The notes: generated by a model not told the origin, from the letters alone. Shown: positions 1,312-63,738, counted from the stretch's first letter. The stretch: DNA of 64,000 nt from Wickerhamiella versatilis (GCA_030867685.1 JAQOWU010000004.1:1-64000); one strand, 5' to 3'. Translations and numbers: made by a program.

Positions 1312-1332
1312 GGGCTATCTTGCATTGTCCAA
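1312..1332 (+). repeat. 41-bp dispersed repeat fragment
   Basis: GGGCTATCTTGCATTGTCCAA, exact match to the consensus unit. Confidence 0.9.
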
Positions 1333-1356
1333 ACCGCTGTATAGCGAGTAGTCGCT

Positions 1357-1396
1357 GATATCTTGCTTTATCTGGCCAGTCTTAGGTAGTGAAGTG
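1357..1396 (+). repeat. 41-bp dispersed repeat, degenerate near-full unit
   Basis: GATATCTTGCTTTATCTGGCCAGTCTTAGGTAGTGAAGTG. Confidence 0.75.
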
Positions 1397-1967
1397 CGCT
1401 AATTCGCGACGCTAACCTTTCTGACAAATCCTTTTCGACTTGTAATAGAAATTGGGATAAGTTCAGGACCCATGCTCTTTAATTGGCATAAGGGGGGACT
1501 CTAAAAATTCCATATTGTCCTAGACACACTTTACTTTACATTAAGTTCGAACGACTTTTCGTTTCTCTAGAAACCAGCTCTTATCAATGTGTGTGGCCAC
1601 ATTTGACTCATATTATTCACCTTGCTCTTCTGATAATATAACGCTATAACACTAAGGTCCCACAGAAGTACTTTAATTTCAATTAAACGCAGATTTATGT
1701 TCGAAACAAGCTTTTCGCAAGCTTATCACCTCCATCTACCTAAGATAAATTGAATATGCTTAGTCATAATAAGTCAGGGTTATTACTCCCTTTGCAGCTT
1801 GTTAAAATGAGTCTCTTACTTACGACGGTCATCTGACTTTTTTCGATAAATCCGTAATCCTCCAAGATGCTCTCGAAATCTCCGATGATATTTTGAAACT
1901 CGCTCACTAATTTTTCCCCGAAGTACTCAGGCTCGCTTCTTGCCGTGGCGTGCAAAATACTGGGATT

Positions 1968-3083
1968 CTACAGCTTTCCAACTTCAGCCAACCCCCACTT
2001 GTAAACTGGAAAACGAGATCTTACATCGTCCACACTCCACACGTTCCGAGTTTCATGGACGTCTGCCCATACGGTCTCGTCATAACTGGATTCACCCTCC
2101 CCATTATATATGTCAGAGTCTCTAACGCTTCCTCCTAGTCCACGTTTATATATCCATTGAACCATTATGGGTGGCCACACAGTAAATGATTCGATATTGC
2201 CCTTTCCTATTTCTGATTGAATCATAATATCGATAGGCATGTCAGAATCAATTGCTTGTCTGACGAGCATGCGCCTAGCCCCCCTACGACTAATTGCATA
2301 ACCAGTCGTACAACCTGGGGTCCCACTCTTTCTTATTGTCCGCTTGCCAACTCCTATATCGAAAGATTCTACCAAGGAGAAGTCATAGCGGAAAGATACT
2401 GAGCCAGGGTCTTCATATACGTTGAAGATGTCTGAAAAATCGTTCCCTTCGCCGCAGGCTCCAAAGTATATCATATCCCAGGAACTACCCCAAGGATGTG
2501 ATTTTGTGGCATTCAACCCTAAAGCTCTGTCACCGCTCAGCTTATTTAGTGCCTTAGCCATCCGCTCTGATTGCTTGCGAATATCTATACCGAATGCTGC
2601 ATCCCCTTCCAGAATGAGTGCGTTTTCCCACCCTTCCTTGAGTATTAGCTTCCAAACATTAGCATGTGAGCGAGCGCATGCCCACTGTGCTCGGTGCCCA
2701 CGATCAGTAGGTAAGGTTCCATACTGATTGGACGACGGGGGGTAGCCTGTTTTTCCGTCGTCAATAGAGTCGGCAAGCACTGAGTCTTCGACATCCCACT
2801 GTAGCCCTGACAGGTCTGCCTGCAAAGCCATAGCATCAGAGAGGTCATGTCGAGAAGGCAGGTTGAGGAAAATGATTTTTTGAAATCCAAGTGTTTCGTT
2901 CCCGGCAGCTTCGAAATCGAGGGTTTCAGAAGCTAAAGAAAGCGGCAGGCCAGATGATTTGAAGGATAACCCACTGAGGTGTCTAGCTACAGCAACCCCT
3001 ATGACAACCAGGATTAGGAAAGTTGTCGTAAACTTCCACTGGCGAAAAGGAAAAGAGGCCATTGTGACGCGAAAAAGTGACAT
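1968..3083 (-). CDS. Glycosyltransferase family 25-like, type II membrane protein (paralog 1)
   Basis: Motifs NETLGFQKIIFLNLPSRHD, ACARSHANVW, LILEGDA, CTTGYAISRRGARRML; N-terminal TM segment. Start trimmed from the 3317 ORF start to ATG 3083 (MSLFRV; 3062 is an alternative) because this matches paralog length and a TATA-like element lies at ~3130. Confidence 0.8.
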   Translation of the reverse strand: MSLFRVTMASFPFRQWKFTTTFLILVVIGVAVARHLSGLSFKSSGLPLSLASETLDFEAAGNETLGFQKIIFLNLPSRHDLSDAMALQADLSGLQWDVEDSVLADSIDDGKTGYPPSSNQYGTLPTDRGHRAQWACARSHANVWKLILKEGWENALILEGDAAFGIDIRKQSERMAKALNKLSGDRALGLNATKSHPWGSSWDMIYFGACGEGNDFSDIFNVYEDPGSVSFRYDFSLVESFDIGVGKRTIRKSGTPGCTTGYAISRRGARRMLVRQAIDSDMPIDIMIQSEIGKGNIESFTVWPPIMVQWIYKRGLGGSVRDSDIYNGEGESSYDETVWADVHETRNVWSVDDVRSRFPVYKWGLAEVGKL

Positions 3084-3678
3084 AGTTATTCCTGTACCGA
3101 AACCTTCCCTGTTACGCGAAAGTGTGATTATATAAATTGAAATGAGACTGGGTCGACACAGCAAGACAGCATAGGTACGATGAGACCCGCAGGGAGCCAG
3201 GTGTGAAATTAGAGGTCTGAATAAGAAGAAATAAAACTTATTGGTTCTAGCTGACTTTACAGTATTATATCGTAATTCAAGTGCGCTTTGAAAAGATCCA
3301 ATGATGGAAAATGTCATTTATTCTCTCAACGCTACAATTACTAATACGTTCTACATATGCAGGGTCGCAGGGTAGCCCACCACTTGAGTCTCATCGGAGC
3401 GCCATCCTCCTGTAAAGACTACTTAATGTCAATTTTTTGCATGGTACATTTGATGTTTAGAAAAGATCTAGTGGTACCCTGCTCATATTTATTCTAAGGG
3501 GATGCTCATATCATATGACGAAGCCATTCTCTATCGGATCATAAGTACACGGGGTTTAGCTGGTAGCAAATACCTTTAGTATTGACCACAAATCTCGAGT
3601 ATTTGCTAGAACACCATTACATATCTCTAGCGAAAATGACATTATTTAAGTCACTCTCCAACCGAAAATGGAGGATAA

Positions 3679-3718
3679 CAGGTGCCAAGAAATTATTTTT
3701 TCAGGTGCCAAGAAATTA
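3679..3718 (+). promoter_or_regulatory. Two 17-bp direct repeats CAGGTGCCAAGAAATTA, each containing a PacC/Rim101-type site (TGCCAAGAA)
   Basis: Copies at 3679-3695 and 3702-3718, between two divergent GT25 genes. Confidence 0.5.
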
Positions 3719-3865
3719 CGTCAGCGGTGCAGTTTTCATGTGTATGAATAATCTGGCCTAGCTAATCGTACTGCTTATTTCGACAATAACCAAGCTGTCC
3801 ATGTGCCATTTCGGTCAATCTGTGCTGTGGTTCTATACTAGTAATTATCAAACCTGTAAACAGCA

Positions 3866-3897
3866 CACTTCGCTACCTGACTGTTTGGACAATACAA
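3866..3897 (-). repeat. 41-bp dispersed repeat fragment (degenerate)
   Basis: CACTTCGCTACCTGACTGTTTGGACAATACAA versus consensus CACTTCACTACCTGAGACTGGTTGGACAATGCAA. Confidence 0.7.
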
Positions 3898-4201
3898 AAC
3901 AGTGGGCCATCTTGGTGGAACATGTTACGTAATATCATACGATATGGAAATAGCAATAACCCCTGCCTCCATATCATAGTGATGACAGTAGAGATCTGGA
4001 GAAGGAGATAAAATGTTAGAATGAACCCATGCCTATCATCCCATTTCCTACGAGATGAGGTTTTTTACTTATAGTGAGAGAACTGGTCTTCAATACAATA
4101 ATATTCACTAGACTTGAGTACCTTTTCAATGCATAAAAGAGTCCATTGATTACCAAGGCAGCTGTGGGACTTGGTTTACGCGTGATAGTTCTCCTTGGAA
4201 T

Positions 4202-5275
4202 ATGAAGAAAGCATCTTTTGGTAAAAGGATGGCCACTCGAGCGGTGATTCTAGTATCCTACATTTTATTGGTTATATTAGCCATTTGGCCCGATAGCAGG
4301 TATCCTAAAGTGTTGTTCAATGCTGCAGGTAATAGTTCGCGGGGCTTCGAAAAAATAATTTTTGTAAATCATCCTTATCGCAAGGATAATGCCAATATAA
4401 TGTCACTCGAAAGTCACTACTCCGGCATAGAGTACTTGACATCCAAAGAAGCAGACTACTATGAGTCTAAGTCCGACAAAAACGATCTTCCATCTGTAGA
4501 TGTAGCTTGCGCGTTATCACATATGAATGTCTGGAAACTAGTTCTGGAAAAAGGCTGGGCGTCAGTCCTCATCCTGGAGTCTGATGTAACTTGGGATGAG
4601 AACATCAAGAACATATCCAAACGAGCTGCAAAGGGTCTAGATACGCTGATAAATGAGAAGCGACTTAGACAAGGTGGAAGTCAGCCATCTCCGCAAGATC
4701 CATATAATGTAGAGCAGTGGGACTATTTCTCATGGGGGACCTGTTTCGACGAAGAGCGATTTGAGGCCAGTGCATCCGGCATTTACGTGAAATACCCTGA
4801 TGTCGACTCCCCAAATTGTGAATACGGCTGGCCAGAGGATGATGTGAACGATACGCTTGTAGACGAACGCATAATGAGGAAGGCTGGCTTTCCAATCTGT
4901 ACTAATGCCTATGCTTTGACTGCCAAAGGAGCCGAGAAGCTACTCCTTCGGAAGTCGCTGTTTTCAAATGGCTCTGTAGATTTAAAAATGGCTCAGGAAA
5001 TCGATAAAGGAAATTTAGTGGGTTATGAGATGTTTCCACCACCAATGTATCAGTGGCGCTATGTTGGTGATACCGGGGCAGATGGACTAAACCCTGACAT
5101 AGCTTCGGAAGAGAGGCAAGAAGAAAATATCAGTAATATTGAAGAGAAATGGAGCCAATCCCAAGACCCTAGCTTTTTCTGGGAAATTAACCATCGTAAC
5201 TACCCATGGCCGTATAAGCATTGGGTATTGAACAGGATAGCTGAAAATATGGTGTCAAAGAACACCTCTTCTTAA
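4202..5275 (+). CDS. Glycosyltransferase family 25-like (paralog 2)
   Basis: N-terminal TM; GFEKIIFVNHPYRKD, ACALSHMNVW, LILESDV, CTNAYALTAKGAEKLL; collinear with the other two GT25 ORFs. Confidence 0.8.
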   Translation: MKKASFGKRMATRAVILVSYILLVILAIWPDSRYPKVLFNAAGNSSRGFEKIIFVNHPYRKDNANIMSLESHYSGIEYLTSKEADYYESKSDKNDLPSVDVACALSHMNVWKLVLEKGWASVLILESDVTWDENIKNISKRAAKGLDTLINEKRLRQGGSQPSPQDPYNVEQWDYFSWGTCFDEERFEASASGIYVKYPDVDSPNCEYGWPEDDVNDTLVDERIMRKAGFPICTNAYALTAKGAEKLLLRKSLFSNGSVDLKMAQEIDKGNLVGYEMFPPPMYQWRYVGDTGADGLNPDIASEERQEENISNIEEKWSQSQDPSFFWEINHRNYPWPYKHWVLNRIAENMVSKNTSS

Positions 5276-7270: not shown

Positions 7271-8976
7271 CTATTGTTAGTTTTTTGTTAATCCATGAGA
7301 TCAGAGGTCGTATTTATACTTGCTGGCTTATTCAATCAATGATAGTTCTCTGCATTCGTATTATTCCTTACATGAGATCCGAGATAGAAGGTATAGCATT
7401 TCGATACAGCACTTCGATCTATAGCCGCACACCATAGAGTGGATTTTACCTACGCTACACAAGGTCTTGGTGTCATGTTTCCATATCAAAATGCCCTGAA
7501 ATAGTCTGTTGTGTTGATCTACTGCTGATATCCCTATGCTCTGAAACTGGAAGATCACACCTAACCCGGAAGGTACTTTTGTCGAAAGCACATCAGATTA
7601 GCTATGAAATATCGTTACAAATATGCAAAAATAAAAAGTAGGGATTTTATGCCACGGTATAGTACGCAGCGAGTGCTGTTACACTTGAATCGGGCTTGCA
7701 TTGCGGTTAACACTTCGTGCGCTTGACCCGTACCCTACGACTTACGGTTTGGATCACGTAATCACCGCAGGTATTTGGAAATAAGCTATTGTCTCTAGAT
7801 AGAGAAATTGCAGCGACGAGAGAGAAACAAAAAAGCCTAGAGGAAGCACAGCAGCCTCCTCATGCAATTGTGACTGGTTGGAAAGATTTAGCTGACTGCC
7901 CAGCATTCGGCATGATGTTTGTTGCCGGCGGATTTTACCTACCCTAACATCCAGGTACCTACAGCATCAGTTGGGCTTCACGTGGAATTATGAAGAGAAA
8001 ATCATAGTATCCTTTTCCCTCAGGTTGCATATCTTTGATTATTTCTATAATAGACTGCTTAGTGCGTAAGATAAAAAATGCCACGAAGAATATAAAAAAA
8101 CCCCAAGATGCTGCTCAATTACTGACGATACCTCCAAATAAGGATACCCGCGCCGATGACAGGCATGAGAAAGAACACGAAATTCGAAGAACTTTTGGTT
8201 CTACATAATTTGGGGTCGTCTAAAAAGGGATTCTCTAAGAGTTTGCAGCATCATTATAATCAGTCGCTACTCCTTCAATGCTGCTGTTATAGGGAAAGTC
8301 GTAAAAAATTCATAGTCTCTAATCATAATATTGAAATTGTGTTGGGGTATGTACATTCATCAATCAATTATATATCGGCCTGCCAGAGGATTCCTGCGGA
8401 GGATGGCTATGATGCAGGCATGCCACCCCACATCTCATCTACCCTACCTGCGACTCAAAGGGTACCGTGGTGCTCCACTAAAGTTTTTCAAACGCCAGGC
8501 TCTTCCGACGTCAGGTTATACTATTTAGCCAACTAAGTGGCCACGAACCCCAACAATTCTGTCTAAAGATAACTTGCGCGACGTGATCCGACAGATTAAT
8601 ATCAGCTAGATACTTGTGTGAGATAATAACTTAGTAATAATAACCAATTATAAAAGATATACACGGCCACCCTTTTTGTAAAGTTGGTTAGACAGTACAA
8701 AAAGGACCGAAATTGGACGAAACGCGTTCAACATTCTAGATGGTCCCAAACAAGCCACACAGCAGGTGCAACAACAGATGCTTATTATATACCATCACAA
8801 TTGGAACCCACCTTGCTACCAGTGGCACTAAATATGACCATGAAAATTGCAATAATTGGCAGTTCCTGGTAGAGATATCTTATAATATGCTTGCAGAGAC
8901 TTAGAGATGTTTAGCCAAGCCAGGGCTGGTGCCAGACACTACAAATACTTTGTTAGACTTTGGTTGAAGTCCGGTT

Positions 8977-9007
8977 GGCTATCTTGCATCGTCCAACCAG
9001 TCTCAGG
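8977..9007 (+). repeat. 41-bp dispersed repeat fragment
   Basis: GGCTATCTTGCATCGTCCAACCAGTCTCAGG, 1 mismatch to consensus. Confidence 0.95.
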
Positions 9008-13240: not shown

Positions 13241-13940
13241 TGATGCGTGATGACAGGTTATCTAGAAATAGCTGATGTAATTCGATGTCCTTTAGCTTCA
13301 CCTGTGACTTCGCAGCTTCGGTCATTGCGATAGAGTTGAAGAAATATATGTATATACCAAATAGCTGTTTTTTGTGACTGGTTGGAAGTCATCCGGCAGC
13401 TAGGAACATAAGAGGATTCTAGAATCGTAGCTACATACGCCATGGTGAAAGATGAAGCTAGGCTCATATGTGTAGTAAAATTAAAGGGGGTAGCAGCATT
13501 GATAAGGGTTTCCGTGATCTTCTTTGTTTTTACCTTAATTTCGCTGGTAGATGGTTAATGCGATGATAAAGAGCGCCTTTCTATAGTAACGCATTGCGAT
13601 GCATGAAGAACCGTGAAATATATAGCCGACGGAAGGATCGAAAGTCGATTGGGCAGCACGAACGACGGATGGGAGCATCGAAAGAGTAGATAATTGCATT
13701 TCGAGACGAATGATGACATTTCTAGCCCATATTCATACTGTATTTATGTGATTTCTGGAAAATCAAATCGACCATGGAACAGCGCTGCTATAATTTAAGC
13801 CTTTAGGTTTATATAGAGTAATATAGCTTCGAGAAGACAATTATACCATCGCCCATGTTTCATTCCATTAAGTTCTGAGATTCCGATTAGCAACGATATT
13901 ATTTTTAGATAAAGCGATTATCTTACCAACCAAGGGGCTT

Positions 13941-14000
13941 CTTTCCGGGTTCCTTTCCGGGTTCCTTTCCGGGTTCCTTTCCGGATTCCTTTCCGGATTC
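13941..14000. repeat. Tandem 12-mer CTTTCCGG(G/A)TTC x5
   Basis: Three copies with G followed by two with A, in the divergent promoter region. Confidence 0.95.
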
Positions 14001-20291: not shown

Positions 20292-20353
20292 CTGAAGGCT
20301 AGTTGGACAATTCAAGATAAACCACTTACTACCTGGGACTGGTTAAAAAATGC
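20292..20353 (-). repeat. 41-bp repeat, ~1.5 head-to-tail units
   Basis: CTGAAGGCTAGTTGGACAATTCAAGATAAACCACTTACTACCTGGGACTGGTTAAAAAATGC. Confidence 0.85.
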
Positions 20354-20881
20354 GACACGACTCGTTGCACTACTCTTTGCCAATTCACATTTATTCTACC
20401 TGGAAATAATCAGGACCGTCTTTACTTTGAGGATTGTTCATATATGAGGTGGGTTATCGTGCTCTCTCTTGTTAATTGCTAATCACTTAGTGAAGGATTG
20501 CCCAGTGTGGGTTAGTTAATCATGACGAGGTAGCGTATCTTGGCCACTACTCGCGATTGGCGTTGAGGTATCATCCTTAAGTGTACTTGTCTTATTATTG
20601 AAATTTATACAGCACTATCAGACTATCTTCAATGCTCATAGAGACTTTCGTCATATCTGGTGTCGTGCGGCACAGATCCGTAACCAGCCGGCTAAATGGC
20701 CACTAGACTGTTCATGACCCAATCTGATACTTATTCTGATATCCAAACAAGCTAGCTTGCAATATGACGGGGTCTCATATTGTAAACTTACTATGATCTC
20801 AGCCAACATAGATACTAACTGTAAATTCAGGCTTTTTTTTATTGGATTTTTCTCTGACAATCTGGGTTGACGTGTAGGGGT

Positions 20882-20922
20882 GTGGGCTACCTTGCATTGT
20901 CGAACCAGTGTCCGGTAGTAAA
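20882..20922 (+). repeat. 41-bp repeat, about one full unit
   Basis: GTGGGCTACCTTGCATTGTCGAACCAGTGTCCGGTAGTAAA. Confidence 0.9.
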
Positions 20923-22600: not shown

Positions 22601-24180
22601 TTACGTTGCATAAAGAAACCTGGGATTAAGGTCGCCTGCCATTACCTTATCCTCGAAACTCAGTCTCTCCCAATTAGAGTCTTCTTTTCCATCCCGTCTG
22701 CGTTTGTTAACGCAGATTATCCCTAAAAAATAAACTGTGCACGTTACGAGAGAAAATACCATAAGAGCCAAACAAGTCCATATACCTCGTGAATAGTTGG
22801 GCGCATCCTGAGGTCGAAAAATGAATGATGATACGATGCCTCCTATATTTGCGAACCCCACAATCCAAGCAGAGCTTACTAACTTTCGATAATGTCCAGC
22901 GAAGTTCATACTCGTCCAGCAAACTATGATTGACATAAGACTGATTGCTCCAAGTATAATAAGGAAGCAAGCAACATACCTTGGGTGACTATTGGCAGGA
23001 TTTCCATTTGAGTCAACGGCATCGAATCCCAGAAGCAAGGAGAAACCTGCAATAGAAATCAGCCCAGTAAAGATGGTAAAGAGGTAGCGATGTTGTAGGA
23101 AATCTGAAAGAGCACCAATAATAATGGCACCGCCAAAGCTTGTCAACCATGGGTATATGGAGTAAGCCTGTACACTTACAGGATCGTCTTGCAACGTTTT
23201 GATGATGCTTGTTGCAAAATATGCGTAACTGTACGACCCAACAATCACTCCGAAGTACATTGCACCCCCAACGAATACTTTCCAGTCTTTGAAAACAGAA
23301 AGAATATCTCTAAGGGTTACTTTCGCATTAGCCAAAGATTTGCCTTGATCTAGCTGGTGCTTACGAATTTGGTATTTCCGCTCGTTCTCTGTCAGAAATT
23401 TCGCATCCTCAGGAAAGTCAGCTATGAGGAAGAATAAGATCATGCCACAAGCACAGGTGATCGCACCTTCAATGATGAAGATCCAAAGCCAGCCTGCTAT
23501 TCTCTGCTTTCCATCCAGCGTGTTCATGCCATATGCAATTAGTCCGGCGAAAGCTCCAGCTAGAGATGTCGAGCCATAGAAAAAACAAAATCGCTTGAGT
23601 GCCTCTCTTCGGAGAAGCCATCCTCCTAGAAGATAGAAACAACCAGAGAGCATCCCAGCCTCGAATAAACCGAGAAGGGTTCGTGTCGTATAAAGGGCAC
23701 ATTTCGAAGTCACAAACCCCTGGCCAATCGTGATTCCACCAAAGCATATGATACACAAAGAGAGCCATACGTGAGGCTTCAAGAGCTTAAGCAGGTAATT
23801 TGCTGGGACCTCAAAAACAACATATGGACAGTAAAATAAGGCCAGCGCAACATTGAGTCGATTTCCTTCAAGGTTAGCCCCTCTCATATATTTTCCACCT
23901 GGCTGAGGTCCCGAAGAGATACATACGTTTTGGCATTACTGATATTAACGCGATCAATGAAGCTCAAAAAGTACAGAAGACAAATAGGCAGCACGATCCA
24001 ACAGTCGATCTTTAGTTGAAGCTTCCAGGGAGTTATTTCATATTCTTTTGCTAATTCTTGAACAGTCTTATCAGTTTCCACCGTATTTTGAAACCTAAAG
24101 TTTTCCTCTTCTGTAGATTTAGTGGTAATATGCAAGTTGGATTCTGTGCTGGGGGGCGAGATCTTTCTTCTACTATCCAT
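22601..24180 (-). pseudogene. Frameshifted Tna1-like MFS (ACS family) transporter, paralog of 29693-31276
   Basis: ORFs 23884-24180 and 22601-23887 are the N- and C-parts. Against the paralog there are 8 instead of 9 nt after KTY (~23920), i.e. a 1-nt deletion. Confidence 0.8.
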
Positions 24181-25222
24181 ATGTCAATAGAAGGGATGTA
24201 AGACCAATCGTAGCCTGAATATATTAATAACCCGATATTACCACCAGTTATTTACAGTAATGGAAAAATCAAGGTCCCATTGGGTCATGTCTTACGTTAA
24301 GATCGTCTTCATCGATGGCGCTCGGAATTTTATTTAGGAGAATCCATAAATATCCCCGTTTTGCAAGTAACTGACACCAGATATAAACTGTTCTTTTATA
24401 CGAGTCCGGAAATATAGATAGTCTTGATCTAAGGCTCGCAATTGGGGCCATGGCTACCTTGAAGTGACTAGGGGTGAAGTTGAGCGCATGTTATGTAATA
24501 TCATGATTCACACATCATTGGAGTTAGCAAGCCGCTATAGCAGGTATTAGAAGCAATTTATATAATTCTTGTTCGGGGATATCACTGATCTTAGACTGTT
24601 AAAAGAAACGAAGTCGTCACTTTAGTGACCTGTCAAAACATATGTCAAAAGATCAGATAGAAGCTCCAGCTAAGACTGAGCCACTAGCTTATTGATATCG
24701 ACAATGATTCACACTAAGCGAGATTTTCGTGGGCAAGATGCATTGGTCAGTGGACGCCATGTCGCCTACCAGGAAGACTAACCACATTGCAAGACAATCC
24801 ATATTTGCAGATATACCATCGTGTTTATACTAAGAAATCTTCGGACTAGTACCTTTCTGAATTTATACCAGTAGACCGTGCCAAATCAATGATTTCACGT
24901 GGGAGTTCACTGGTTTAAACCTTATCCAAAAATATTCCGAAATTTTCATAAGAGGGTCTCCGGGTATCTCGAAATCAAAGTGAAATGAAACACACAGCTA
25001 CATAGCGGTAAATAAAACATTCTGCTACCCACACGTGGTTCCACAAGGCAAGATACTGATACCTGACTTTATGGCACCCCCGGTCATACTACCCTTTCCC
25101 TGGAAACTGTGCGAGGCACTGCTATCAAATTTCGCAGATAGCAGTGTAACTGTAACATAGTAAGCATACTAACAGAAATTCGTTATTTCCGTCAACAATA
25201 TAGCAGACGGTAAGCTTCCCAG

Positions 25223-26848: not shown

Positions 26849-27152
26849 ATTAGATTTCGTTGGCTCTAGCATATAACCATTGACATATTACTCAACATGT
26901 TAGATAGAGGTAAATTTTGCAAAGATAGCCCACTTTTAGCTTTATATATTCCGCTTATATCAAAAAGCTTGGAAATTTTGTGGGGTCATTTCATCGTGTG
27001 TGCGGATTAGTAATGTTAAGTTCATGTTAAGTCTGGTCGGCAGTTATCTATGTATATCCCTTAGCCCATAGCAATCGTTAGCCCATGTCCTGTATAGCAT
27101 TACACTGCTCGAGAAATAAAGTTATAAGGTCATAAGTTAGAGATTGATGAAT

Positions 27153-27590
27153 TTAAGATATTTTTGTTTCATTTTTTATAAGAATACTCAGACACGAAGT
27201 AATCAAAGCTATAATAACAATGAAGGCGACAATTATTGAGATCCTTGCTGCAGGATATAGTCCACATAGAAGTGCCTTTTGGGTTGAAAAGTATCTCAAG
27301 GTCCCAATAATAGAGAATATTAGCCCAATGACAATAAATAAGATTCCGATGATCTGCCCAGCCCTCTGGAATTCCCCCATACGTCCCACATGGCCATTTA
27401 GTTGAAAAAGTTGGGTAACGACGACACCTGCACTGACTGCAGTAAGACCTGTTCTCATCCAAGCAAGAAATGTCCTCTCATTGGCAAGATGGTCTCGAGC
27501 AACACTATTATGGTTTTCCAGGTAAAGCTCTAGCTCGAGCCCCTTCATGAAGGTTAGTAACACATCGACATCCATGTCAAAATTGTCCAT
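27153..27590 (-). CDS. DUF202 (YidH/Vtc1-like) 3-TM membrane protein
   Basis: ARDHLANERTFLAWMRT plus three hydrophobic segments. Confidence 0.85.
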   Translation of the reverse strand: MDNFDMDVDVLLTFMKGLELELYLENHNSVARDHLANERTFLAWMRTGLTAVSAGVVVTQLFQLNGHVGRMGEFQRAGQIIGILFIVIGLIFSIIGTLRYFSTQKALLCGLYPAARISIIVAFIVIIALITSCLSILIKNETKIS

Positions 27591-36300: not shown

Positions 36301-36303
36301 ATA

Positions 36304-42083: not shown

Positions 42084-42136
42084 CAGTCTCAGGTAGTAAA
42101 AAGTGGGCTATCCTGCCTTATCTAACCAGTATCAGG
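42084..42136 (+). repeat. 41-bp repeat, ~1.2 tandem units
   Basis: CAGTCTCAGGTAGTAAAAAGTGGGCTATCCTGCCTTATCTAACCAGTATCAGG. Confidence 0.85.
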
Positions 42137-42764: not shown

Positions 42765-43428
42765 TCACCGTTTAATGTCCGCATATGAGTCTGTATGCAT
42801 GTATTTAAGGCACTGTTTTGTATTCTTGAGCAAAAGGTGTAGGCCTATGGACGATTTTCGAGATGAATGCATAGATGTCTTGACAGGTCTGATCTATTGC
42901 TAAACGTCCGTTGGAATATTTCACAATGACCAAGAGCGTCGAGAGCAATTCTTGATATTAAAAGGTATTCTTCTAAACCTAATCTCTCGTTATAGGGAAG
43001 TAAAGAATGGTTTGGTATATTCCTCACAATGCTTGCTTTCTGGGTCTTTTTGCCTTTTTATGAGCTACTTTTGAGGAAGCCGCGGAAGTGACGTAGAATC
43101 TCCCTTCCTTCTGAAAAACACCTTGCATAGCTGAAAAATTAGGATGGCTTGGATGTCCGACAGTTGCTGATTGTCTTTCGTCATAAAGTTCACTTCTACT
43201 TTCACTGCATTTTCCATTTAGATTAAGAGGAATTTTGAAAATGCAGTTGCAAACCTCGTTCAACGCATCCCTTGAAGATCTCTGTGAGACATCTTGACGA
43301 TTAAATCCATTTACAGTACTGAAAGATCCATATGTGAGTTCTTGGATCTTAGAAGTCTCAGAACCTATAAATGGTCTGGAAGTGGGTGCGTGACCTGTCA
43401 GGATCCAGAGCTTCAAAAAATAAGTCAT
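42765..43428 (-). pseudogene. Decayed C2H2 zinc-finger gene, inverted paralog of 47732-48319
   Basis: YNERLGLEEYLLISR..HCEIFQRTFSNRSDLSRHLCIHLENRP* matches YNEKLSLKEQLLISR..HCEICQKKFRYKTDLSRHLCIHLDIRPY; upstream VNGFNR matches VHGFSR; stops and frameshifts present. Confidence 0.8.
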
Positions 43429-44785
43429 AAATCAAGTTATTGAAAACTCCAACTTTACCAGATACCCACAATCGGCTGTGTTCTTGTACTATTCAATGTC
43501 GTGCTGCTAAAGATATGTTTACTCAGGTTGTTTATAACTAGCATGTATAAAAGCTTCCTGAAAAATAGTTTATACAGCTTTATTGAACTTTAAAGCGATT
43601 GAGTATGTGCTTCGATCTGTTGATACGTGGCTATCGAGCCCAGTTTACCGCGGCGAAAGACGGCGATCTCCGTCGGTAGTGTTGATTAGCTAATTACGAG
43701 TCAGGCCTACTACAGTGCGGCTATGTAATGCATTCCCTCTGACTTACAGCAACGAATAATCAACGCATTTCAGGCTTACCATAAATGTATTAATTTCATT
43801 GCGTACTGCAACGCCTGAGGAACTCATAAATTAACACGTTATTTGCAGAAATCTGAGACCCCAATGATCTATTAGGCAGATCGCTGAAAGGCAAGCCTAA
43901 AGCATTAGCAGGATGTTGTTCATCCCATTTTCATTTTCCAACTTCTCTAATAGCATTTGGATGCTGTGTAGATAAAGTAACTAATGTGACCATTTAGTCG
44001 CTGTCTATTATGGAGCATAGAACATCTTTCTAATCAGGATGTATGGTCGCTAAAAGCGTATGACACTGGAATTTTTCGTTATGAGCTGCAACAAATGTGT
44101 ATTTGATCCTACTTTTCATAGGAAATATCACAACTAATTAGCCGATTAGCCTGAATCCATCGGCTCGGCCGAGATCTAGCGTCCAGAATATAAAGTAGTC
44201 AAATGATACTCAATGTAAATCTTGATCTTAACTTTCTGTATAGGAAAAATCCCCTATTCCTTTCTTTTTCTATATTTGCTCTCCCTTTTATTCATACGTA
44301 GAACATGCCTCTCGTTTGCTAGCATTCCAGATTTCTTACCAAATATTGCATGACATGGCAGGCGCAGAGGCTGAGCAGACATTGCGCGATGCCAGAGAGC
44401 GAGAAATGAAGGAAAAATTATGAACCAACGCCGTAAAATGTTGTTAACGAGTGGAATCCGCTATTGTGGCTCTCTTGTTGTATTGAAAACGTTGACTTTG
44501 GATGGGGGTGGCTTTTTTCGACTCAAAGCATGAGCAGGATCCTCTGTGGCATTTCGAGTAATTACTTCATTATACGAATAGTACATATTAGGCAATTGAG
44601 CAAAATCACGTTGAATACTGCTAGAACAGTTACTAGGCATGCAGGAATTCATGGTCTTTAAACCAGAACCTTACCCAAATACACTTCCCAAACCGCCGAT
44701 GTCTAGTGGGCCATCGAAATGATTTCCAACACCTTGTAACTAGAACCACTGTAAAATATCACAAAGCTTTCAAACGACGACGAAG

Positions 44786-46525: not shown

Positions 46526-47731
46526 CGTTTTTGTATTTGTATGCAGATTAATAGCATACATCCATTAACTTCTGCATAGATAGGTTGAAATAACGTTGTA
46601 TGTATGTTTAACATATTCTGCAGATGGATCCCAGCTAATATTTTCTGGATTAAGCCCCTCTTGGAAGAAAATCGGGAAAGAATATCTTAATTTGAAGTAC
46701 AAGCATATGCACTGATTCTTTATATTTATGTTCTAATTTCCAAGGAAAAGCGTACGCGACTCGACAGGGTCGATATATTCTCTAAGACCACGCTGGCATA
46801 CCTAATTGCTGGTCGCAGGCATACAGCTATACACTACTTTTTTACAAATACTGCTGGAAATTTAAAAAATCTCTCTCCTTGCCACAGTTTTAACAGTTTG
46901 AAGTGAATGCCTGCCGAAAAAAAAATATTAGTCACTTTGGAGTCTAGAACAGGCCTAGACATCCCTCTGGAGACAGTTCTCTCTCATCTTGACTATACCT
47001 TTTCCGATTGCTTTTATTTTTGACTAGAAATAATTCTATTCATGGATGTGGCTCTACTTGCTTTTCTACTACCACTGAAGAGGCCATTGATAACAAACGT
47101 AACCGTCATTTTGGGCTTTCTAAGATGGGTTTTATCCAGTGTGTCTATAGACATGAAATAGAATTCGTAGCTTCTTTTGGCTCTTTATTACTATCCAACA
47201 ACAAATTTACTGATCTATATGGTTGGGCAAAATATGGATGCACAGATCTTGACGCCTTCCAACCATACTCACATTGTGCGATTGGTTGGGGAATAAGAGA
47301 TTTGTTTTCTTAAAGACAAAGCGAGAAGTGGTTCCAAGTTTTCAAAAAATTACACATTATTCGCCACTTCCCGATATTTCGACCTGCATCAATCTCAGAC
47401 AAAACTGCGACGAAAAGTTGCTACGCATCTGTAAAGTAATGCATTGTAGTGCAGTTTGCAGTATGTTACCACCTCACCCTGGCATGCGGATGTCAGCATG
47501 AAAAAATGCTATTTTTAACAGCGATGTAGAAATATGTAAAAACTTAGTGGATTAAGGATGTAAAAGAATACATTAAACTGACTGACATCTCAAATGGCTT
47601 AGCAGCGAACAGTGTCCTATCCACAGGAGCTCACATGTAAGTTTAATAAATGATTACTGGTCCGTTTGAGCTGTGCCCACCTTCCAGACAATTAATGTGA
47701 TCTTATGCTTACCAGTATATGATCAGAGGAT

Positions 47732-48319
47732 ATGGACCTTTCATTGATCGTGCATGGATTTAGTCGTCGAAAGTTTTCACTGAAGTCTTTTGGCGAAGTG
47801 ACGGAGCAAGGGCGTGGGACGACCCTTAAGGCACAATCACTTAATGCGAGCGCAAGTCATAATTTAATGGTTGAACACGAAAATAAGAGCAGCAAAATGT
47901 ATCTTGAAAGACAGTCTTCCTCAGTTGAGCGGTTTCCATATTCTAACACATCATCCCTGCAAAGTTTTGTTTTAGATGGTAGCATGGCCCTGTGTCGCTT
48001 GCACAATTCCCATAAAAACTATTCTGAAAATAGAATAAGGTGCGAAGACCATGGTGTTAAAAAGGGAACATCATCCTTCGCCTCCCTGGCCTATAACGAG
48101 AAATTAAGCCTAAAAGAACAACTCCTGATATCACGAGTTGGATTTAACGGTCTCTATCATTGCGAAATATGCCAGAAAAAATTTAGATACAAGACTGATC
48201 TCTCAAGGCATCTGTGTATTCATCTTGATATTCGTCCATATGCCTGTCCAATTCGTTCAAGAAGGTTTATACAGAAGAAGTCTTTAAATGTGCACGTAAA
48301 AACACACACGCGGAGGTAG
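47732..48319 (+). CDS. C2H2 zinc-finger protein; second finger degenerate
   Basis: YHCEICQKKF..L.RHLCIH, linker LDIRPY, then CPIRSRRF..L..HVKTH, which lacks the second Cys. Confidence 0.6.
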   Translation: MDLSLIVHGFSRRKFSLKSFGEVTEQGRGTTLKAQSLNASASHNLMVEHENKSSKMYLERQSSSVERFPYSNTSSLQSFVLDGSMALCRLHNSHKNYSENRIRCEDHGVKKGTSSFASLAYNEKLSLKEQLLISRVGFNGLYHCEICQKKFRYKTDLSRHLCIHLDIRPYACPIRSRRFIQKKSLNVHVKTHTRR

Positions 48320-49617: not shown

Positions 49618-49975
49618 TATTGTAGTGCAGTTTGCAGGTATGTATCACCTCATCCTGGCATGCAGATGTCAGCATGAAAAAATGCTATTTTTAACGGCGA
49701 TGTAAAAATATGCAAGAACCCAGTGTATTAAGGAACAAAAACAAATTAAACTTATTGAAGTCTCAAATGGCTTAGCAACGATCGGTATCCACGGGAGCTC
49801 ACATGTAAGTTTAATAAATGATGACTGATCCGTTTGAGCTGTGCCCACCTTCCAGACAATTTATGTGATCTTCGTGGGCTATCTTACCAGTATATGTCAG
49901 ATGATATATACTTTCATTAATCGTGCATGGATTTAATCGTCAAGAGCTGTCACTGAAATCTTTTTTGGCGAAGTG
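49618..49975 (+). repeat. Diverged direct copy of ~47443-47800 (upstream region and 5' end of the zinc-finger gene)
   Basis: Shared ATTGTAGTGCAGTTTGCAG, GATGTCAGCATGAAAAAATGCTATTTTTAAC, GGAGCTCACATGTAAGTTTAATAAATGA, TCCGTTTGAGCTGTGCCCACCTTCCAGACAAT. Confidence 0.93.
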
Positions 49976-50110: not shown

Positions 50111-50130
50111 CTGGCTGGACAATGCAAGAT
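50111..50130 (-). repeat. 41-bp repeat fragment
   Basis: CTGGCTGGACAATGCAAGAT. Confidence 0.85.
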
Positions 50131-50630
50131 CACATAATTACAGGATAGCCGGGCTTAGGTATAAAGGGTTGAACGCATTTTGTTGAGGAAGTGACATTAT
50201 GAAGATAGCCTCCTCATATAAGATTAAATTTCAGTAATCCTGAATCTGCTGGACTGTGCAACGTAGCTTGATCTATCAGTCTCGATTTGGGTATATATAT
50301 AAATGGTTCGAATTCTACTCGTGCTGGTATATGTATGGCGTGGATACTTATGTACTTATGACTTATAGATTCTTGTTGGTGACTAATCGATGTACGCGAG
50401 TTACTGGTTCCGCAGTACACGATAGTTTTTCTAGTACGAAATAGACATAAGTTTGGTTATGTGTTTAGTGGTATGAATAAAGAAAAGAGAACCTATATTT
50501 TGCTGCGGTTCTGTGAATGTTGCTAAAATTATGTACGCTATTTTAGCATTATAAATGGGGACTTGTCATCTGAGTCATATGAAGATTAGCCATGCAACTG
50601 TCAACTTCAATTGTGATATTTTTTTCCATT

Positions 50631-50663
50631 CCTGTGACTGGCTGGACAATGCAAGATAGCCCA
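50631..50663 (-). repeat. 41-bp repeat fragment
   Basis: CCTGTGACTGGCTGGACAATGCAAGATAGCCCA. Confidence 0.93.
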
Positions 50664-51023: not shown

Positions 51024-51045
51024 CTATATTGCATTTTCCAACCAG
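51024..51045 (+). repeat. 41-bp repeat fragment
   Basis: CTATATTGCATTTTCCAACCAG. Confidence 0.75.
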
Positions 51046-53278: not shown

Positions 53279-53347
53279 GACTGATTAGACAATGCAATAT
53301 GCAGAAAAACATTGATAGAGACTGGTTGGACAATGCAAGGTGGCTCA
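53279..53347 (-). repeat. Two 41-bp repeat fragments about one unit apart
   Basis: GACTGATTAGACAATGCAATAT and GAGACTGGTTGGACAATGCAAGGTGGCTCA. Confidence 0.88.
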
Positions 53348-55767: not shown

Positions 55768-57462
55768 CTACATCTGGGCACCAAGCATCCAGGGGACCAT
55801 TTCTTCTTTGCCCACATCGAGAGCTTCACTCTTGCTAGGCTCGCCAGAAGCCAGAGTGATAAACCGACGGAAAATCTCCTCGCCCTTCCTAGCAACAGTA
55901 GTTTCACCGTCAATGATGTGACCACAGTTGATGTCCATATCATCCACCATGCGATTATACATAGGCGTGTTAGTGGCAAGCTTGATGGTAGGAGCAACTC
56001 TTGAACCGAAACAAGACCCACGTCCAGTTGTGAAGGCAAGAAGTGTGGCACCACAGGCAATTTGTCCTGTAGCACCCATGGGATCATACCCAGGTCCATC
56101 CATGTACAGCAAACCCTTTGTGTCAAGGGGCTCTGCGTACCTATAGACTCCCTGTAGTGGGGTAGATCCACTTTTCGCAACGGCTCCCAGTGACTTTTCT
56201 AAAATCGTGGTGATACCGCCCTTCTTGTTTCCAGGTGTCGGGTTGTTGTCGATACTGCCGTTTTCGCGTGCAGCATAACCTTCCCAGTCATGGATGATAT
56301 CGACAATCTTCTCTCCAATTTCCTTGGTTACCGCACGGCTCGTGAGCATCATCTCGGCACCGTAAATTTCTGGTGTCTCGGTAAGAATAGCTGACCCGCC
56401 CTGGGCAACCAGAAGGTCGACTGCTTTACCCAATGCCGGATTAGCAGTGAGAAGAGAATATCCATCTGATCCACCACATTGCAAAGCCACTGTTAGGTGC
56501 GAAAGTGGTAATGGCTGTCTTTCGGTCTTATTGACCTCGGGCAAAAGACCCTCAATAACCTTGATAGCTGCATCAGCAGTCTTCATCGTTCCGCCCTTTT
56601 CCTGCATAACCAATGGAACCAAGCGGGAACCTGGCTTTACATGCTCAGTCATAAAAATGGCATCCATCTGATTTGCCTCGCAACCGAGACCAATGACAAT
56701 AACCGCCGCGAAGTTCGGATGGACGATGTAGCCACCGATGGTACGGCGCAACTGTTTGATACCCTCACCGTTCCAGTCAATACAGCAGCCAAATCCATGA
56801 GTGATGGGTAAAACACCATCGATATTGGGAAACTGTTTCAGGATGTCCGACTTGGCAAAATGGTCAGCCACCTTACGAACAGTGGTTGCCGAGCAATTGA
56901 CAGTACTGATCACGCCAATTAAGTTGCGTGTCGCTCCGCGTCCATCTGGACGCAAATGACCATTGAAAGTCAGCTCCTCTTTTGGCTTCTCAACTGGTCT
57001 CACTTTGCTACAGAAAGCATAGTCACGCTTGAAAGTGTGTCCCATGGCGAGGTTATGAACATGCACGTAGTCACCCGGAGCAATGTCTTTGGTCGCAAAA
57101 CCAATGATCTCGCCACATTTGTGAACAGGTTCACCCTTCCTGATACTATGAATAGCAATTTTGTGACCATTGGGAACATCAGTATCAACTGTTATTTTCT
57201 CAGGTAAATCAAGTACAGTACCGTTGGGCAAATCCTCGCGAGCCACTACTATATTATCATGGTCGTTGAGTAAAACAAACTCATCGCTTGTGCCCTTATT
57301 CCAGGTTCTCTTAGAGTTAGAATCACTAGGCCTCAGCGGAGTCGTGTGGAATTGCTTCGCTACACCAGGGTAAATAGAAGAGCGTTTGAAGGCCAACTGC
57401 TGGGGACGAGCAGAACGAAGAGCAGCTAAAATAAGTTTGATATTGATTCTGAAAAGGGGCAT
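55768..57462 (-). CDS. UxaA/GarD-family (altronate/galactarate) dehydratase with predicted mitochondrial presequence
   Basis: SAF domain (DNIVVA..GHKIA..GDYVHVHNL), TRNLIGVISTVNCSAT, HGFGC, LQCGGSDG, NPTPGNKKGGITTILEKSLGA, FTTGRG. Confidence 0.88.
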   Translation of the reverse strand: MPLFRINIKLILAALRSARPQQLAFKRSSIYPGVAKQFHTTPLRPSDSNSKRTWNKGTSDEFVLLNDHDNIVVAREDLPNGTVLDLPEKITVDTDVPNGHKIAIHSIRKGEPVHKCGEIIGFATKDIAPGDYVHVHNLAMGHTFKRDYAFCSKVRPVEKPKEELTFNGHLRPDGRGATRNLIGVISTVNCSATTVRKVADHFAKSDILKQFPNIDGVLPITHGFGCCIDWNGEGIKQLRRTIGGYIVHPNFAAVIVIGLGCEANQMDAIFMTEHVKPGSRLVPLVMQEKGGTMKTADAAIKVIEGLLPEVNKTERQPLPLSHLTVALQCGGSDGYSLLTANPALGKAVDLLVAQGGSAILTETPEIYGAEMMLTSRAVTKEIGEKIVDIIHDWEGYAARENGSIDNNPTPGNKKGGITTILEKSLGAVAKSGSTPLQGVYRYAEPLDTKGLLYMDGPGYDPMGATGQIACGATLLAFTTGRGSCFGSRVAPTIKLATNTPMYNRMVDDMDINCGHIIDGETTVARKGEEIFRRFITLASGEPSKSEALDVGKEEMVPWMLGAQM

Positions 57463-59287: not shown

Positions 59288-60086
59288 AAGTAGGGCAGAC
59301 CAATTCACTTTGTTTTTGAAAGGATATTTTTGATGATTAGGCATTTCTTATGAGCTAATAAATAGCAGAATAAATCTTATACTTCGTTTTGTATTAATAC
59401 ACCCCCGTCCACTTAAGACATCAGCTTGTCCTTTTTAGAGCTGAAATAGAAACACGAGATAGAAATTGCGCGCGTAGTTCTCATATGGCTAGGCAGCTAT
59501 TTCTACTATGTCCCCACTAACCGTTCATGAAAACTTACCATGGGCATACATAGCACACTCCACTACCTGAAACTAGTTCGATAATGTATGCAGATCTCGG
59601 TGCAAGTTAAGGGCAAGGATGTTTCTAGAGTGCACCCGCGGCATGCTGAACCGTCAGGCATTAAACAGTCGGACAAACTGGAAAAAAGTACCGAGGCTGG
59701 AAAAGTGGCATTTTATTCTATTATAAGAGAAGATGGAACGGTTTTCGTTATAAGGGGATGTACTTTTGCCATTCGATTTCAACACGGTAAGGGTCACCCT
59801 GGTCGCTTACAAATAGCCACAGCAACGGGTGCCTTATCCCTGAAAAATTCCCAGATCGTATTTATGATATAGCCCTTCAATCACCACACTAGAACCTATA
59901 ATCGATCACATCTAGCATGCCAATACAAATATCAGTAGGTGTTCAAGGGCATTAAACATAGAGGTAGGCTATCTTACGTTATCCTCAGCAGATAGATACT
60001 TATCAGGGCAGGGTCAGAATCTGTGGGCCTCCTACCGAAGTGCTATGTAGATAGGGAGATGCCTCGCCTATTTTGATCTGTCCGAC

Positions 60087-61481: not shown

Positions 61482-61762
61482 GGATTATGGATATCTTAAC
61501 ATCATAGGTGTATTGGAGTTTCCAACTTATTTTTCATTTACTAATTTGTCAATATATCTTAGTAAATTCGCAACCTAGAATGGAGAGCAAATTTTGTTCT
61601 TTCTAGTGCAAAATTTAGCAGTAAGCTCATACGAAATCGCAGTTGTGACAGAGACTGAGTGCTTTATGAAAGTTCTCTTAAGCCATCCTCTCATAGTCGC
61701 ATGCTTCCTGCAAGACAGAGTTTAGGCAGCTGTCTTCTTGTATATCAAAATATCTGAGAGAA

Positions 61763-63149
61763 CTAGCATCGAAATTCCTCGTCTTCACACAGTAGCTGTT
61801 GTTCGTGGTCCAATAAATTGACATAAAGATCATAAATGCCAGATCGAGTACAGTCAGGATACAGCACAGCACTATTTATTCTAGGGGAATCAGGACCTCG
61901 CACGGCGATTGGAATCCCGATACCAAAATCCCAGTTGGTCGTCTCAGCTGAGTGCCAGCTCGTGAGCCAGAAACAAGTCTGAGGGAGACCAAAGGGCACA
62001 AGGACAGCTCTTTCATTCGACGACAGTTTAGAGGGAAGTGCCGTTAGGTTGTAAAGGGAGGCACGATGGTCACCAAGTGCGATCGAGCATCGGTTGCTTG
62101 ACGCAGTATAGGAGAGACCATTTATTGGATCCAGTATATCTTCCGCGGATAAGGGCCCGGTGACTCCCGCTGCCATCGCATTGCCAAAATAGCTCGTTGG
62201 AACGATTGATCGCTTGCGGAGATCCACCGGCTGCACAAGCCGCCATTTTTTGCTGCTTTTGTCGAGGGACATATTTGACGACATTCGAATGCGCACGAGC
62301 GCCCTGAATAGGATAGCAACAATGCAGTCGAGCGTTGAAACGTACGTGACTACATCACCAGCTGTAGGCTTGCAAAGATGCTTAAGCCTCATGGAATCAG
62401 ACGCTATCATTCTGTACAATTTGCCAATGCAGGGTGGACCAGCTGGCTTCCTGGGAGAGAGAGGCATCAAGCTTAAGGATTTTGCAGATCCCATGCCTGT
62501 CATTCTCAATAATCAGCTGCTCCCTAGTCTTCGAAGCAATCTCTGTAGTGGGAAAAATTGGAAGACGGTCGTAGCTGTAATCGAAATTGTTAGGCGAAGG
62601 TGCGCTTCCCTCCATATAAGCTTTAGCGCATTTACAGATCTCCGTGATCGCTAAGCTCACAGATGATCCATCAGCAACCATGTGGTTCAGGACGATTGCT
62701 AAGATTACACCCTCACCAGGAACGAAGTTCACCTGCACCAGACATACGGGTCGCTCGTTCATCTTAGCAGGATGATACGTCTCGGCTGGGAGAAGACACG
62801 AGAGGTCAAGGTCATCTGGCGCAAATGACCGTTGAGCGAGATCATTATATGATTTGTACTCGCCTAATCTGAACTTGCGCATATTAACCTTTGGTGTACT
62901 AGCAGGCGACATCCGTGGCAGCGGTCTCCCCATTTCGTCAAGAATAATTTTTGCCGCAAGGGGCGGAAGCCGCTCACATGCCTTTTCCAATCCGAGTTGC
63001 AGTGAATCAATCATATGTTGGTCGTCAGTGTCTGACGGCAACTTGTATATCACAAAGAAAGGCACTGGAACATCAAACATCATCATGTCTTGCACCGCCA
63101 ACGAGTATGGATCCGCTAACTGTCCGTCTGCTTCAGCTGATGGCTGCAT
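61763..63149 (-). pseudogene. Frameshifted Tri101/Ayt1-like (BAHD-type) acyltransferase
   Basis: N-part has QVNFVPG..LNHMVADG (HxxxD); C-part has PVDLRKR..YFGNA and WDFGIG (DFGWG-like). The two frames overlap at 62397-62509; first ATG 63149. Confidence 0.78.
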
Positions 63150-63279
63150 GTCACTACTATTATAAAAAGTTTGGCGATGTAGCTGCCGCTGCTTTGTTAT
63201 GGGCACTGATGTCCTGTTGGGCTAGGGGGATTTTCACTTAGCTAGAGCTTGTTTGATTTAATGCTTTAGGTACGGTCCA

Positions 63280-63379
63280 TCCAACCAGTCTCGTGCAGCG
63301 TTGAAAAGAGCCCCGCACTTTCGAAATGGGTCACAAGAGGTTATGAATGTTCTTTATATTGTTCCTGGCTATCTTGCAT
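63280..63379 (+). repeat. Two short 41-bp repeat fragments
   Basis: TCCAACCAGTCTC (63280-63292) and GGCTATCTTGCAT (63367-63379). Confidence 0.7.
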
Positions 63380-63563
63380 GCTCCTGATTAAGTTAGTACG
63401 CAGCTGGGGTAACCCTTACCATGTCGAAAGAGAGCGACTAACGTCGATGCCTCTAGAAACGAAAATTGCTCCTGCTATGCTAATAGGCAAAAAGCTCACC
63501 TTGTCGTTTTCGGTATTCTTCCAGGATTTTTCCACAATCTTGGCTAGGAATGAACCACAAATC

Positions 63564-63607
63564 ATCTTGCATTGTCCAACCAGTCTCGGGTAGTGAAGTG
63601 GACCATC
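63564..63607 (+). repeat. 41-bp repeat, full unit
   Basis: ATCTTGCATTGTCCAACCAGTCTCGGGTAGTGAAGTGGACCATC. Confidence 0.95.
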
Positions 63608-63714
63608 CCCCATCTCTATAGAAATAGTATTTTAGGATCCCTGAAACACAGAATTCCTTATCAAGAGAGTTGCTTACCAGGGTGACCCTAAACTACATAA
63701 GTACTATGCACAGG

Positions 63715-63738
63715 TGGACAATGCAAGATAGCCCACTT
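63715..63738 (-). repeat. 41-bp repeat fragment
   Basis: TGGACAATGCAAGATAGCCCACTT, exact match to consensus. Confidence 0.93.

Follow-up and report, generated by a model that had tools for sequence, protein, structure and literature searches.

The question raised by a 64,000-nucleotide stretch of Wickerhamiella versatilis DNA (GCA_030867685.1, JAQOWU010000004.1:1-64000; hereafter, the window) is why pieces of one 41-bp unit are scattered between its genes, and what wrote them there. A preliminary description, made from the sequence alone, took these pieces to be traces of a circularly permuted, telomere-like repeat left at internal chromosome breaks. The analysis reported here led us to a related reading, to which we assign a probability of roughly 0.45: the fragments would be scars left where broken DNA was patched from an RNA template, probably by telomerase, and then closed through microhomology. 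The data show the anchored layout of the copies, patches specific to one paralog, a filler event, a lack of target-site duplications, a high copy number, and conservation in a relative; from these we infer break repair, the use of an RNA template, the involvement of telomerase, and a telomeric identity of the unit.

Fragments of a 41-bp unit in the window

The window was scanned with a query of three joined 41-bp units, the unit being a majority consensus of 17 window copies (one reference and 16 copies aligned to it). The consensus is the unit of the preliminary description in a different rotation; it is numbered here from U1, the A of AGTGGGCT. An exact search for the whole unit, with up to three mismatches allowed, gave no match in the window, so every window copy is partial or decayed. 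At scores of at least 11, 12, 13, 14, and 15, the scan revealed 40, 33, 29, 27, and 22 non-overlapping matches, respectively, versus means of 6.1, 2.4, 0.87, 0.27, and 0.07 (maxima of 11, 7, 4, 2, and 1) in 30 first-order shuffles of the window. Fifteen matches scored at least 20, a score for which the mean and the maximum in the shuffles were both 0. The reported scatter of fragments is thus borne out (27 matches against 0.27 expected at a score of at least 14), and 27 of the 28 positions originally listed lie within matches scoring at least 12; the exception, 18191, matches the unit at 13 of 15 letters by hand count, with a score of ca. 11.

Twenty-nine of the 33 matches scoring at least 12 were retained as the working set (Table 1). 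Those left out were 7869 and 13373 (14 nt each), 35424 (inside an open reading frame, ORF), and 62420 (68% identity, inside an ORF). The first two are an identical 14-letter string (7869-7882 and 13373-13386) that matches U20-U33 at 13 of 14 letters and lies outside ORFs at both places; they were too short for the phase statistics. The retained copies occur on both strands, as had been stated (14 plus, 15 minus), at a density of about one per 2.2 kb. All except one lie outside ORFs of at least 120 codons, which make up 54% of the window (28/29, p = 6e-9). The exception is the weak match at 3143-3170, inside ORF 1968-3317, which may be due to chance.

Six copies, those starting at 1311 (2.2 units), 20296, 28793, 34418, 42084, and 63564, exceed one unit or pass a unit joint, in agreement with the preliminary description. 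A head-to-tail source is apparent from these copies of 1.3-2.2 units and from a 41-nt period in contigs of public sequencing runs. Tandem Repeats Finder, run on the window, did not report the unit. When the window was compared with itself, similarity among copies ended at 42 nt or less, so the unit is not part of a larger repeat, and a long terminal repeat (LTR) or other larger element was ruled out on this ground. An assembly artifact was likewise ruled out: the copies are imperfect, their flanks are unique, and they are bridged by contigs from two runs.

Phase of the copies

Rather than being circularly permuted at random, the copies are anchored at a fixed phase. Their boundary on the AGTGGGCT side falls inside a 17-nt arc of the unit in 25 of 29 cases (Rayleigh R = 0.61, p = 4.5e-6), a clustering that was reached in none of 20,000 random draws, and the opposite boundary is uniform (R = 0.16, p = 0.49). 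Two sequences mark the anchored boundary: AGTGGGCT and, 8 nt deeper into the unit, ATCTTGC. A hand tally of the 12 best-preserved copies (at least 91% identity) places six starts at U41-U2, four at U8-U11, and one each at U5 and U20. One end is thus fixed and the other variably truncated, as in non-LTR retroposons and short interspersed elements (SINEs).

Among the 12 copies at least 36 nt long, seven end at U1-U11, a few letters into a second unit; a full copy typically begins at U1 or U9, passes U41, and continues to approximately U8-U11. Since copies of about one unit mostly overrun into the next by 8-11 nt, the pattern implies a source that would behave like a template of ca. 49-52 nt, both ends of which repeat the same 8-11 letters. 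The template of telomerase has such an architecture, consisting of a repeat and an alignment region.

The unit in public sequencing runs

Of the words sampled from positions 27000-36000 of the window, 91% were found in three metagenome runs, and 6-18% in some runs of named organisms; none of the runs listed was of RNA, with the possible exception of X4. Contigs of four public runs (X1, X3, X4, and X5) were aligned to positions 63200-64000. The summed contig depth per covered base at 63564-63602, which is not a copy number, was ca. 110,000 in X1 (160 contigs), ca. 87,000 in X3 (156 contigs), and ca. 2,150 in X5 (32 contigs), versus 128, 103, and ca. 4.8, respectively, in the flank, i.e., ratios of ca. 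850, 850, and 445. The unit-bearing contigs among those listed have depths of 6-239, so a few other contigs must be very deep. An excess of ca. 850-fold, taken from sums as it is, suggests a collapsed pool of identical units, most simply arrays.

The unit-bearing contigs agree with each other up to AGTGGGCT and diverge beyond it (15 contigs in X1, 14 in X3, and 6 in X5); at the opposite boundary, agreement extends to the end of GCTATCTT before the contigs part (15 in X1 and 13 in X3). Agreement among loose ends beyond the unit was 0.45-0.69. The heterogeneity of these ends is independent confirmation of the anchor, and it shows that the contigs have no larger element in common. The derivation of the fragments from a repeating source, as opposed to a larger element, is thereby supported: neither the window copies nor the unit-bearing contigs have anything in common outside the unit. 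Run X4 carries an orthologue of the 34173 copy. Run X5 comes from a relative whose flanks are 8-12% diverged (20 of 168 and 8 of 100 places differ), and a 40-nt unit contig of this run, with a depth of 165, differs from the window at one letter. The unit has thus stayed constant among diverged relatives, as a sequence specified by a template would.

In both X1 and X3, short-read contigs are interrupted precisely where copies lie (63593, 63572/63573 to 63746, and 63717), so the unit fragments assemblies of this yeast.

Insertion sites and flanking DNA

At two sites, a patch of the unit is present in one of two paralogous regions. The 14-letter exact patch at 26922-26935 is replaced by two or three other letters in a duplicate of 85% identity. 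Paralogs 47443-47800 and 49619-49975 are 84.5% identical, and the 12-letter exact patch at 49874-49885 is found only in the second; here, too, two or three other letters stand in its place. Both sites look like one-step insertions with a small loss of letters and without target-site duplication.

Two further loci carry fragments in inverted pairs. At 28439-28851, a filler (28465-28794; an 85% copy of 26773-27120, whose source lies 1.7 kb from the event) sits exactly between inverted fragments 28439-28468 and 28793-28851, the anchored ends of which face the chromosome; on the inner side, each variable end adjoins the filler through a short microhomology. The second locus, at 32480, consists of two short fragments in inverted orientation that meet at the palindrome TGCA, their anchored ends likewise pointing outward, and the same inverted form was observed in public-run contigs from other loci. 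The joint microhomologies are TCCA/CCAG and ACAA (filler), TGCAA (26922), AAG (49874), and TGCA (32480), which amounts to five joints with no chance control. In a search for target-site duplications, the mean best flanking direct repeat was 2.54 nt, versus 2.60 +/- 0.21 nt in 200 random placements, and none was found at candidate pairs.

Small letter loss, microhomology, copying of filler, and the absence of duplications point to marks of break repair rather than of transposition. Patches present in one paralog only, microhomology at the filler joints, and the lack of target-site duplications are the reasons why the fragments may be read as repair scars, as was proposed from the outset. Target-site duplications and a larger element, as expected if the fragments were transposon termini, were looked for, and neither was found.

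We consider it unlikely that the fragments are relics or excision footprints of a small DNA transposon (a miniature inverted-repeat or foldback element) with inverted ends built up of 41-bp subrepeats in tandem. In that case, the outer terminus would be represented by the anchored boundary, and filler and microhomology would stem from repair after excision. Such an element would account for one fixed and one variable boundary, for inverted pairs with fixed ends outward (one of them with filler), and for the dispersal of hundreds of intergenic copies on both strands; unclassified repeats also make up 0.2-1% of two genomes of the clade that unites Wickerhamiella and Starmerella (W/S), according to the accessible excerpt of PMC13376923. 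However, no target-site duplications flank the copies, and both patch sites have other letters, and no duplication, in the paralog. Inverted pairs are few and do not enclose a shared internal sequence, the contig flanks are heterogeneous, and most fragments are solitary. In addition, the preference of one-unit copies for ending at U8-U11 is not predicted by a terminus made of subrepeats. A TA target site, considered because T precedes AGTGGGCT in the loose-end consensus of three runs, was dropped, as no window copy shows TA.

Proposed mechanism and origin of the unit

In the favored reading, repair patching by an RNA-templated polymerase, the enzyme would copy a fixed template of ca. 49-52 nt (one 41-nt unit, the first 8-11 nt of which recur after it) onto the 3' end of a broken chromosome. 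Copying would begin at a set template position, corresponding to AGTGGGCT or to ATCTTGC 8 nt further in, and would proceed for anything from ca. 12 nt to two rounds. The new tail would be joined to the other broken end via microhomology, sometimes after nearby DNA had been copied as filler. Telomerase would be the likeliest enzyme, because an internal template with terminal redundancy and repeated rounds of copying are called for; the unit would then be the telomere repeat, and the template RNA would be in the sense of the strand ending ...GATAGCCCACT.

Two assignments of the product strand were compared. In Model A, that of the preliminary description, the strand ending ...GATAGCCCACT would be the product, with primer pairing setting the start and a template boundary setting the end. 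A variable start and a fixed end agree with textbook telomerase biochemistry. Model A needs the 330-bp filler to be extended at both ends and then captured, and the join at 32480 is hard to produce under it. In Model B, the AGTGGGCT strand would be the product, with a default start on either chromosomal end and a variable stop or trimming. We prefer Model B because it explains the two-sided events and also the start registers 8 nt apart, which would correspond to the template end and to the first position past the alignment region. The strand originally taken as extended would accordingly be the wrong one: the two two-sided events suggest that the opposite strand, starting with AGTGGGCT, was laid down from chromosomal 3' ends.

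Another reverse transcriptase could have copied a small abundant RNA, or a processed array transcript, onto DNA with breaks or nicks, beginning at the 3' end of the RNA; truncations would reflect premature stops, and head-to-tail joints would reflect template jumps. This, too, appears improbable to us. It would leave the same geometry as telomerase in Model B (a fixed start beside the chromosomal flank and a variable far end), and the lower strand of the filler is antisense to the 3' end of an MFS gene, which we read as cDNA-like. Against it, copies have neither target-site duplications nor the A-rich tails of retroposons and SINEs; Rfam revealed no known RNA across the window at gathering thresholds, and none at E <= 10 across 28400-28900, around a copy; and the transposable element content of the clade is reported as very low in the excerpt of PMC13376923. 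An internal template of the telomerase type also accounts better for the 8-11-nt redundancy and for two start registers with a spacing of 8 nt.

No RNA would be needed if broken ends invaded a tandem DNA array (telomere or satellite) by microhomology, copied part of it, and rejoined, or if array fragments were captured at breaks. Joint microhomology and filler taken from nearby DNA show that template-switching repair operates here, and a large pool of identical units probably exists. However, an array has no fixed phase, which leaves the boundary common to 25 of 29 copies and the 8-11-nt overrun unexplained and makes this route rather improbable. A cis-acting element under selection (a protein-binding site, a replication origin, or a terminator) would be consistent with the intergenic position of 28/29 copies, with five copies at most 100 bp past a stop codon, and with the conservation of the unit in a relative, but we regard it as very improbable, as the copies are truncated (12-35 nt), decayed to as little as 72% identity, placed on both strands in 5' and 3' flanks at any distance, different between paralogs, and, at one per 2.2 kb, too dense for replication origins.

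Telomerase and a telomeric unit remain the leading hypothesis as judged from sequence. The break-repair and repeating-template parts of the reading are supported by the patterns described above. Several observations weigh against the reading as a whole. Summed contig depth says nothing of the location of the units; the only tandem joints among the listed contigs with a 41-nt period are imperfect, and these contigs have depths of 191, 29, and 18, i.e., about single copy or below; and the longest array within the window is 2.2 units. The direction of change at both patches is something we infer, the third paralog (43255-43430) being too diverged to serve as an outgroup for the 49874 patch, and the two-register template model was fitted after inspection of the data. 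A fixed template start on unrelated primers is unlike what is usual for budding-yeast telomerase. The unit does not show the usual, though not universal, G-rich/C-poor asymmetry of telomeric strands (the AGTGGGCT strand contains 11 G and 9 C), and it has no TTAGGG or TTAGGG-like core; TTAGGG-like, Tay1-type repeats are described in related yeast families in the excerpt of PMC12449055.

Long motifs have precedents. The limit of ca. 26 bp given in the preliminary description for Saccharomycotina is outdated: a putative 43-nt telomere motif is given for Pichia norvegensis (PMC7857110, excerpt), and motifs of 21-27 nt were obtained with TelFinder (PMC10100673). No telomere motif of the W/S clade was found in the main texts searched, motif tables being placed in supplements beyond the search. 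Two 18-letter pieces of the unit occurred in no paper of the literature search, and a 22-letter piece had no match in metagenome contigs.

Genomic setting

The window reads like a yeast chromosome-end region. According to excerpts of the respective papers, the genomes of the W/S clade comprise three large chromosomes, the "end domains" of which are very long, poor in genes, and enriched in transferred ones (PMC13376923), and the clade is without many genome-stability genes, including NEJ1 and XRS2 (PMC12629084). Coordinates of the repeat copies and of the filler are collected in Table 1.

Table 1. Copies of the 41-bp unit and associated filler DNA in the window (unit positions numbered from U1; evidence given as matching letters or type of comparison)
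Feature	Position	Strand	Evidence
2.2 decayed units, U3 to U9	1311-1401	+	68/89; score 40
Weak copy within ORF 1968-3317, may be chance	3143-3170	-	23/28
One-unit copy, U7 to U8	3862-3902	-	35/43
Fragment U37 to U18, 48 bp past stop codon	5323-5345	-	Unit alignment, ORF map
Fragment U2 to U35	8974-9007	+	32/34
About one unit, U39 to U37, 31 bp past stop codon	18108-18140	-	31/40
1.9 decayed units, U35 to U31	20296-20373	-	60/79
Copy U35 to U1, 49 nt	20874-20922	+	41/49
Fragment U8 to U27	25036-25055	-	17/20
Short exact patch U41 to U13, missing in younger duplicate of region	26922-26935	-	14/14; alignment
Filler source: last 75 bp of MFS ORF 25223-26848 and 3' flank	26773-27120	+	Self-comparison, alignment
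Fragment U5 to U23	28361-28379	+	18/19
Left arm of two-sided event, anchored end toward chromosome flank; inner filler joint with microhomology TCCA/CCAG	28439-28468	+	Alignment
330-bp filler, 85% copy of 26773-27120	28465-28794	+	348 columns, 85.3%
Right arm of two-sided event, with outward anchored end; 1.4 units (U1 to U18)	28793-28851	-	54/59
Two short inverted fragments meeting at palindrome TGCA, anchored ends outward	32480-32506		Unit alignment
Copy U11 to U2, locus also present in run X4	34173-34205	-	32/33; flank identical to an X4 loose end
Full-round copy U8 to U8	34418-34459	-	39/42
Fragment U5 to U25, 4 bp from adhesin ORF stop	36280-36300	+	Unit alignment, ORF map
1.3 units, U26 to U35, two extra T at unit joint	42084-42136	+	45/51
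Exact 12-nt patch U2 to U13, missing in paralog 47443-47800	49874-49885	+	Alignment
Fragment U9 to U28	50111-50130	-	19/20
One-unit copy, U3 to U1	50624-50663	-	35/40
Fragment U7 to U28	51024-51045	+	20/22
Two partial units, other letters between	53279-53347	-	50/69
Copy U15 to U10	59550-59586	-	31/37
Fragment U40 to U22	59961-59984	+	19/24
Exact 13-nt fragment U20 to U32	63280-63292	+	Unit alignment
Fragment U5 to U22	63367-63384	+	16/18
Full-round copy U9 to U11, public contigs pile up here	63564-63607	+	41/44
Exact 24-nt fragment U41 to U23	63715-63738	-	24/24

Pfam identified five MFS transporters, three GT25 glycosyltransferases, and a PA14/GLEYA adhesin with 132-bp repeats, and ARAGORN found no tRNA in the window. 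Duplication of gene families within the window (MFS, GT25) is typical of a chromosome-end region. MFS transporter genes 22700-24066 and 29792-31159 are 70% alike in DNA, and the GT25 ORFs lie at 1968-3317, 4202-5275, and 34851-35951. The C2H2 zinc-finger gene region is present in three diverged copies (42823-43428, 47443-48319, and 49619-49975), one of which is a promoter-proximal fragment only, and two of which are inverted relative to the third.

The adhesin-like ORF (36304-40515, minus strand, 1403 aa) contains 18 copies of the 132-bp coding tandem repeat at 37214-39615 and a further 87-bp repeat at 36404-36673; a fragment of the 41-bp unit lies 4 bp from its stop codon. A 12-bp tandem repeat (five copies, 97% matches) occupies 13941-14000, in the spacer between an MFS gene and a Lys2-like reductase gene. 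The closest named relatives of a mitochondrial Pic2-type carrier are proteins of Starmerella bombicola (60% identity) and S. bacillaris (57%), which identifies the host as a yeast of Wickerhamiella/Starmerella type. The W/S clade has a reputation for bacterium-to-yeast gene transfer, and the UxaA/altronate dehydratase gene at 55768-57462 (minus strand, 564 aa) is probably such a case, judging by protein similarity: its best named relatives are bacterial (Acetobacter, 72%; Burkholderia/Paraburkholderia, 64-67%), with no fungal name among the best 120 matches.

Discussion

If the unit is telomeric, it would be among the longest telomerase repeats known, in a clade for which the main texts searched contain no telomere description, and telomerase would act in internal break repair at a density that, to our knowledge, is unreported for any yeast. 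The scars would then be natural data on the start and stop sites of the template and on the handover of telomerase products to end joining. They would also bear on the remodelling of the end domains, which are long, contain few genes, and abound in transferred ones (PMC13376923, excerpt). A broader proposition is possible, although we put it forward tentatively: in a lineage short of repair genes, a long-template telomerase (41-nt repeat, ca. 49-nt template) might be a routine break-repair polymerase that starts by default on any broken 3' end, is followed by microhomology closure, and has left hundreds of anchored scars recording its template boundaries and register. Should the unit turn out not to be telomeric, there would still be a family of anchored 41-bp insertions, lacking target-site duplications, to explain.

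Cut-and-paste excision of the P-element type leaves remnants in inverted orientation whose outer ends are fixed, together with filler copied from neighboring DNA and joints that show microhomology. The two-sided events in the window resemble such footprints in their fixed outer ends, filler, and microhomology, but differ from them in that there are no target-site duplications and no larger element, most fragments are solitary, and units are joined head to tail. In chromosome healing by de novo telomere addition in S. cerevisiae, telomerase extends a non-telomeric 3' end with the help of short template matches. Healing creates a new end, with loss of the distal arm and a start set by the primer, whereas here the tail would be rejoined and the chromosome remain whole, with an apparently fixed start.

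The unit is like the long telomere motifs of budding yeasts (PMC7857110, excerpt; PMC10100673) in being tens of bases long, with little similarity to TTAGGG. These motifs form terminal arrays; here, only internal fragments are seen. Telomerase-negative yeasts of the Microstromatales demonstrate that long non-canonical repeats at chromosome ends are possible (PMC13234504, excerpt), but their arrays vary between chromosome ends and persist although telomerase is absent, while in our case one unit is common to hundreds of sites and to a relative.

The closest known phenomenon is that of the short interstitial telomeric sequences (ITS), including TERC-ITS, found at double-strand breaks in vertebrates (PMC8537989, excerpt). 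In both cases, short runs of a repeat are inserted internally in one step; those of vertebrates are recognized by comparison with loci that lack them and are ascribed to break repair involving telomerase. The fragments described here differ in occurring in a yeast, in a unit of 41 instead of 6 bp, in a density of about one per 2.2 kb, and in being mostly shorter than one unit and anchored at a fixed phase; their empty sites are paralogous rather than orthologous, and their telomeric identity is putative. Relative to vertebrate ITS, anchored sub-unit patches of a 41-nt unit, present at very high density in a yeast, would be novel.

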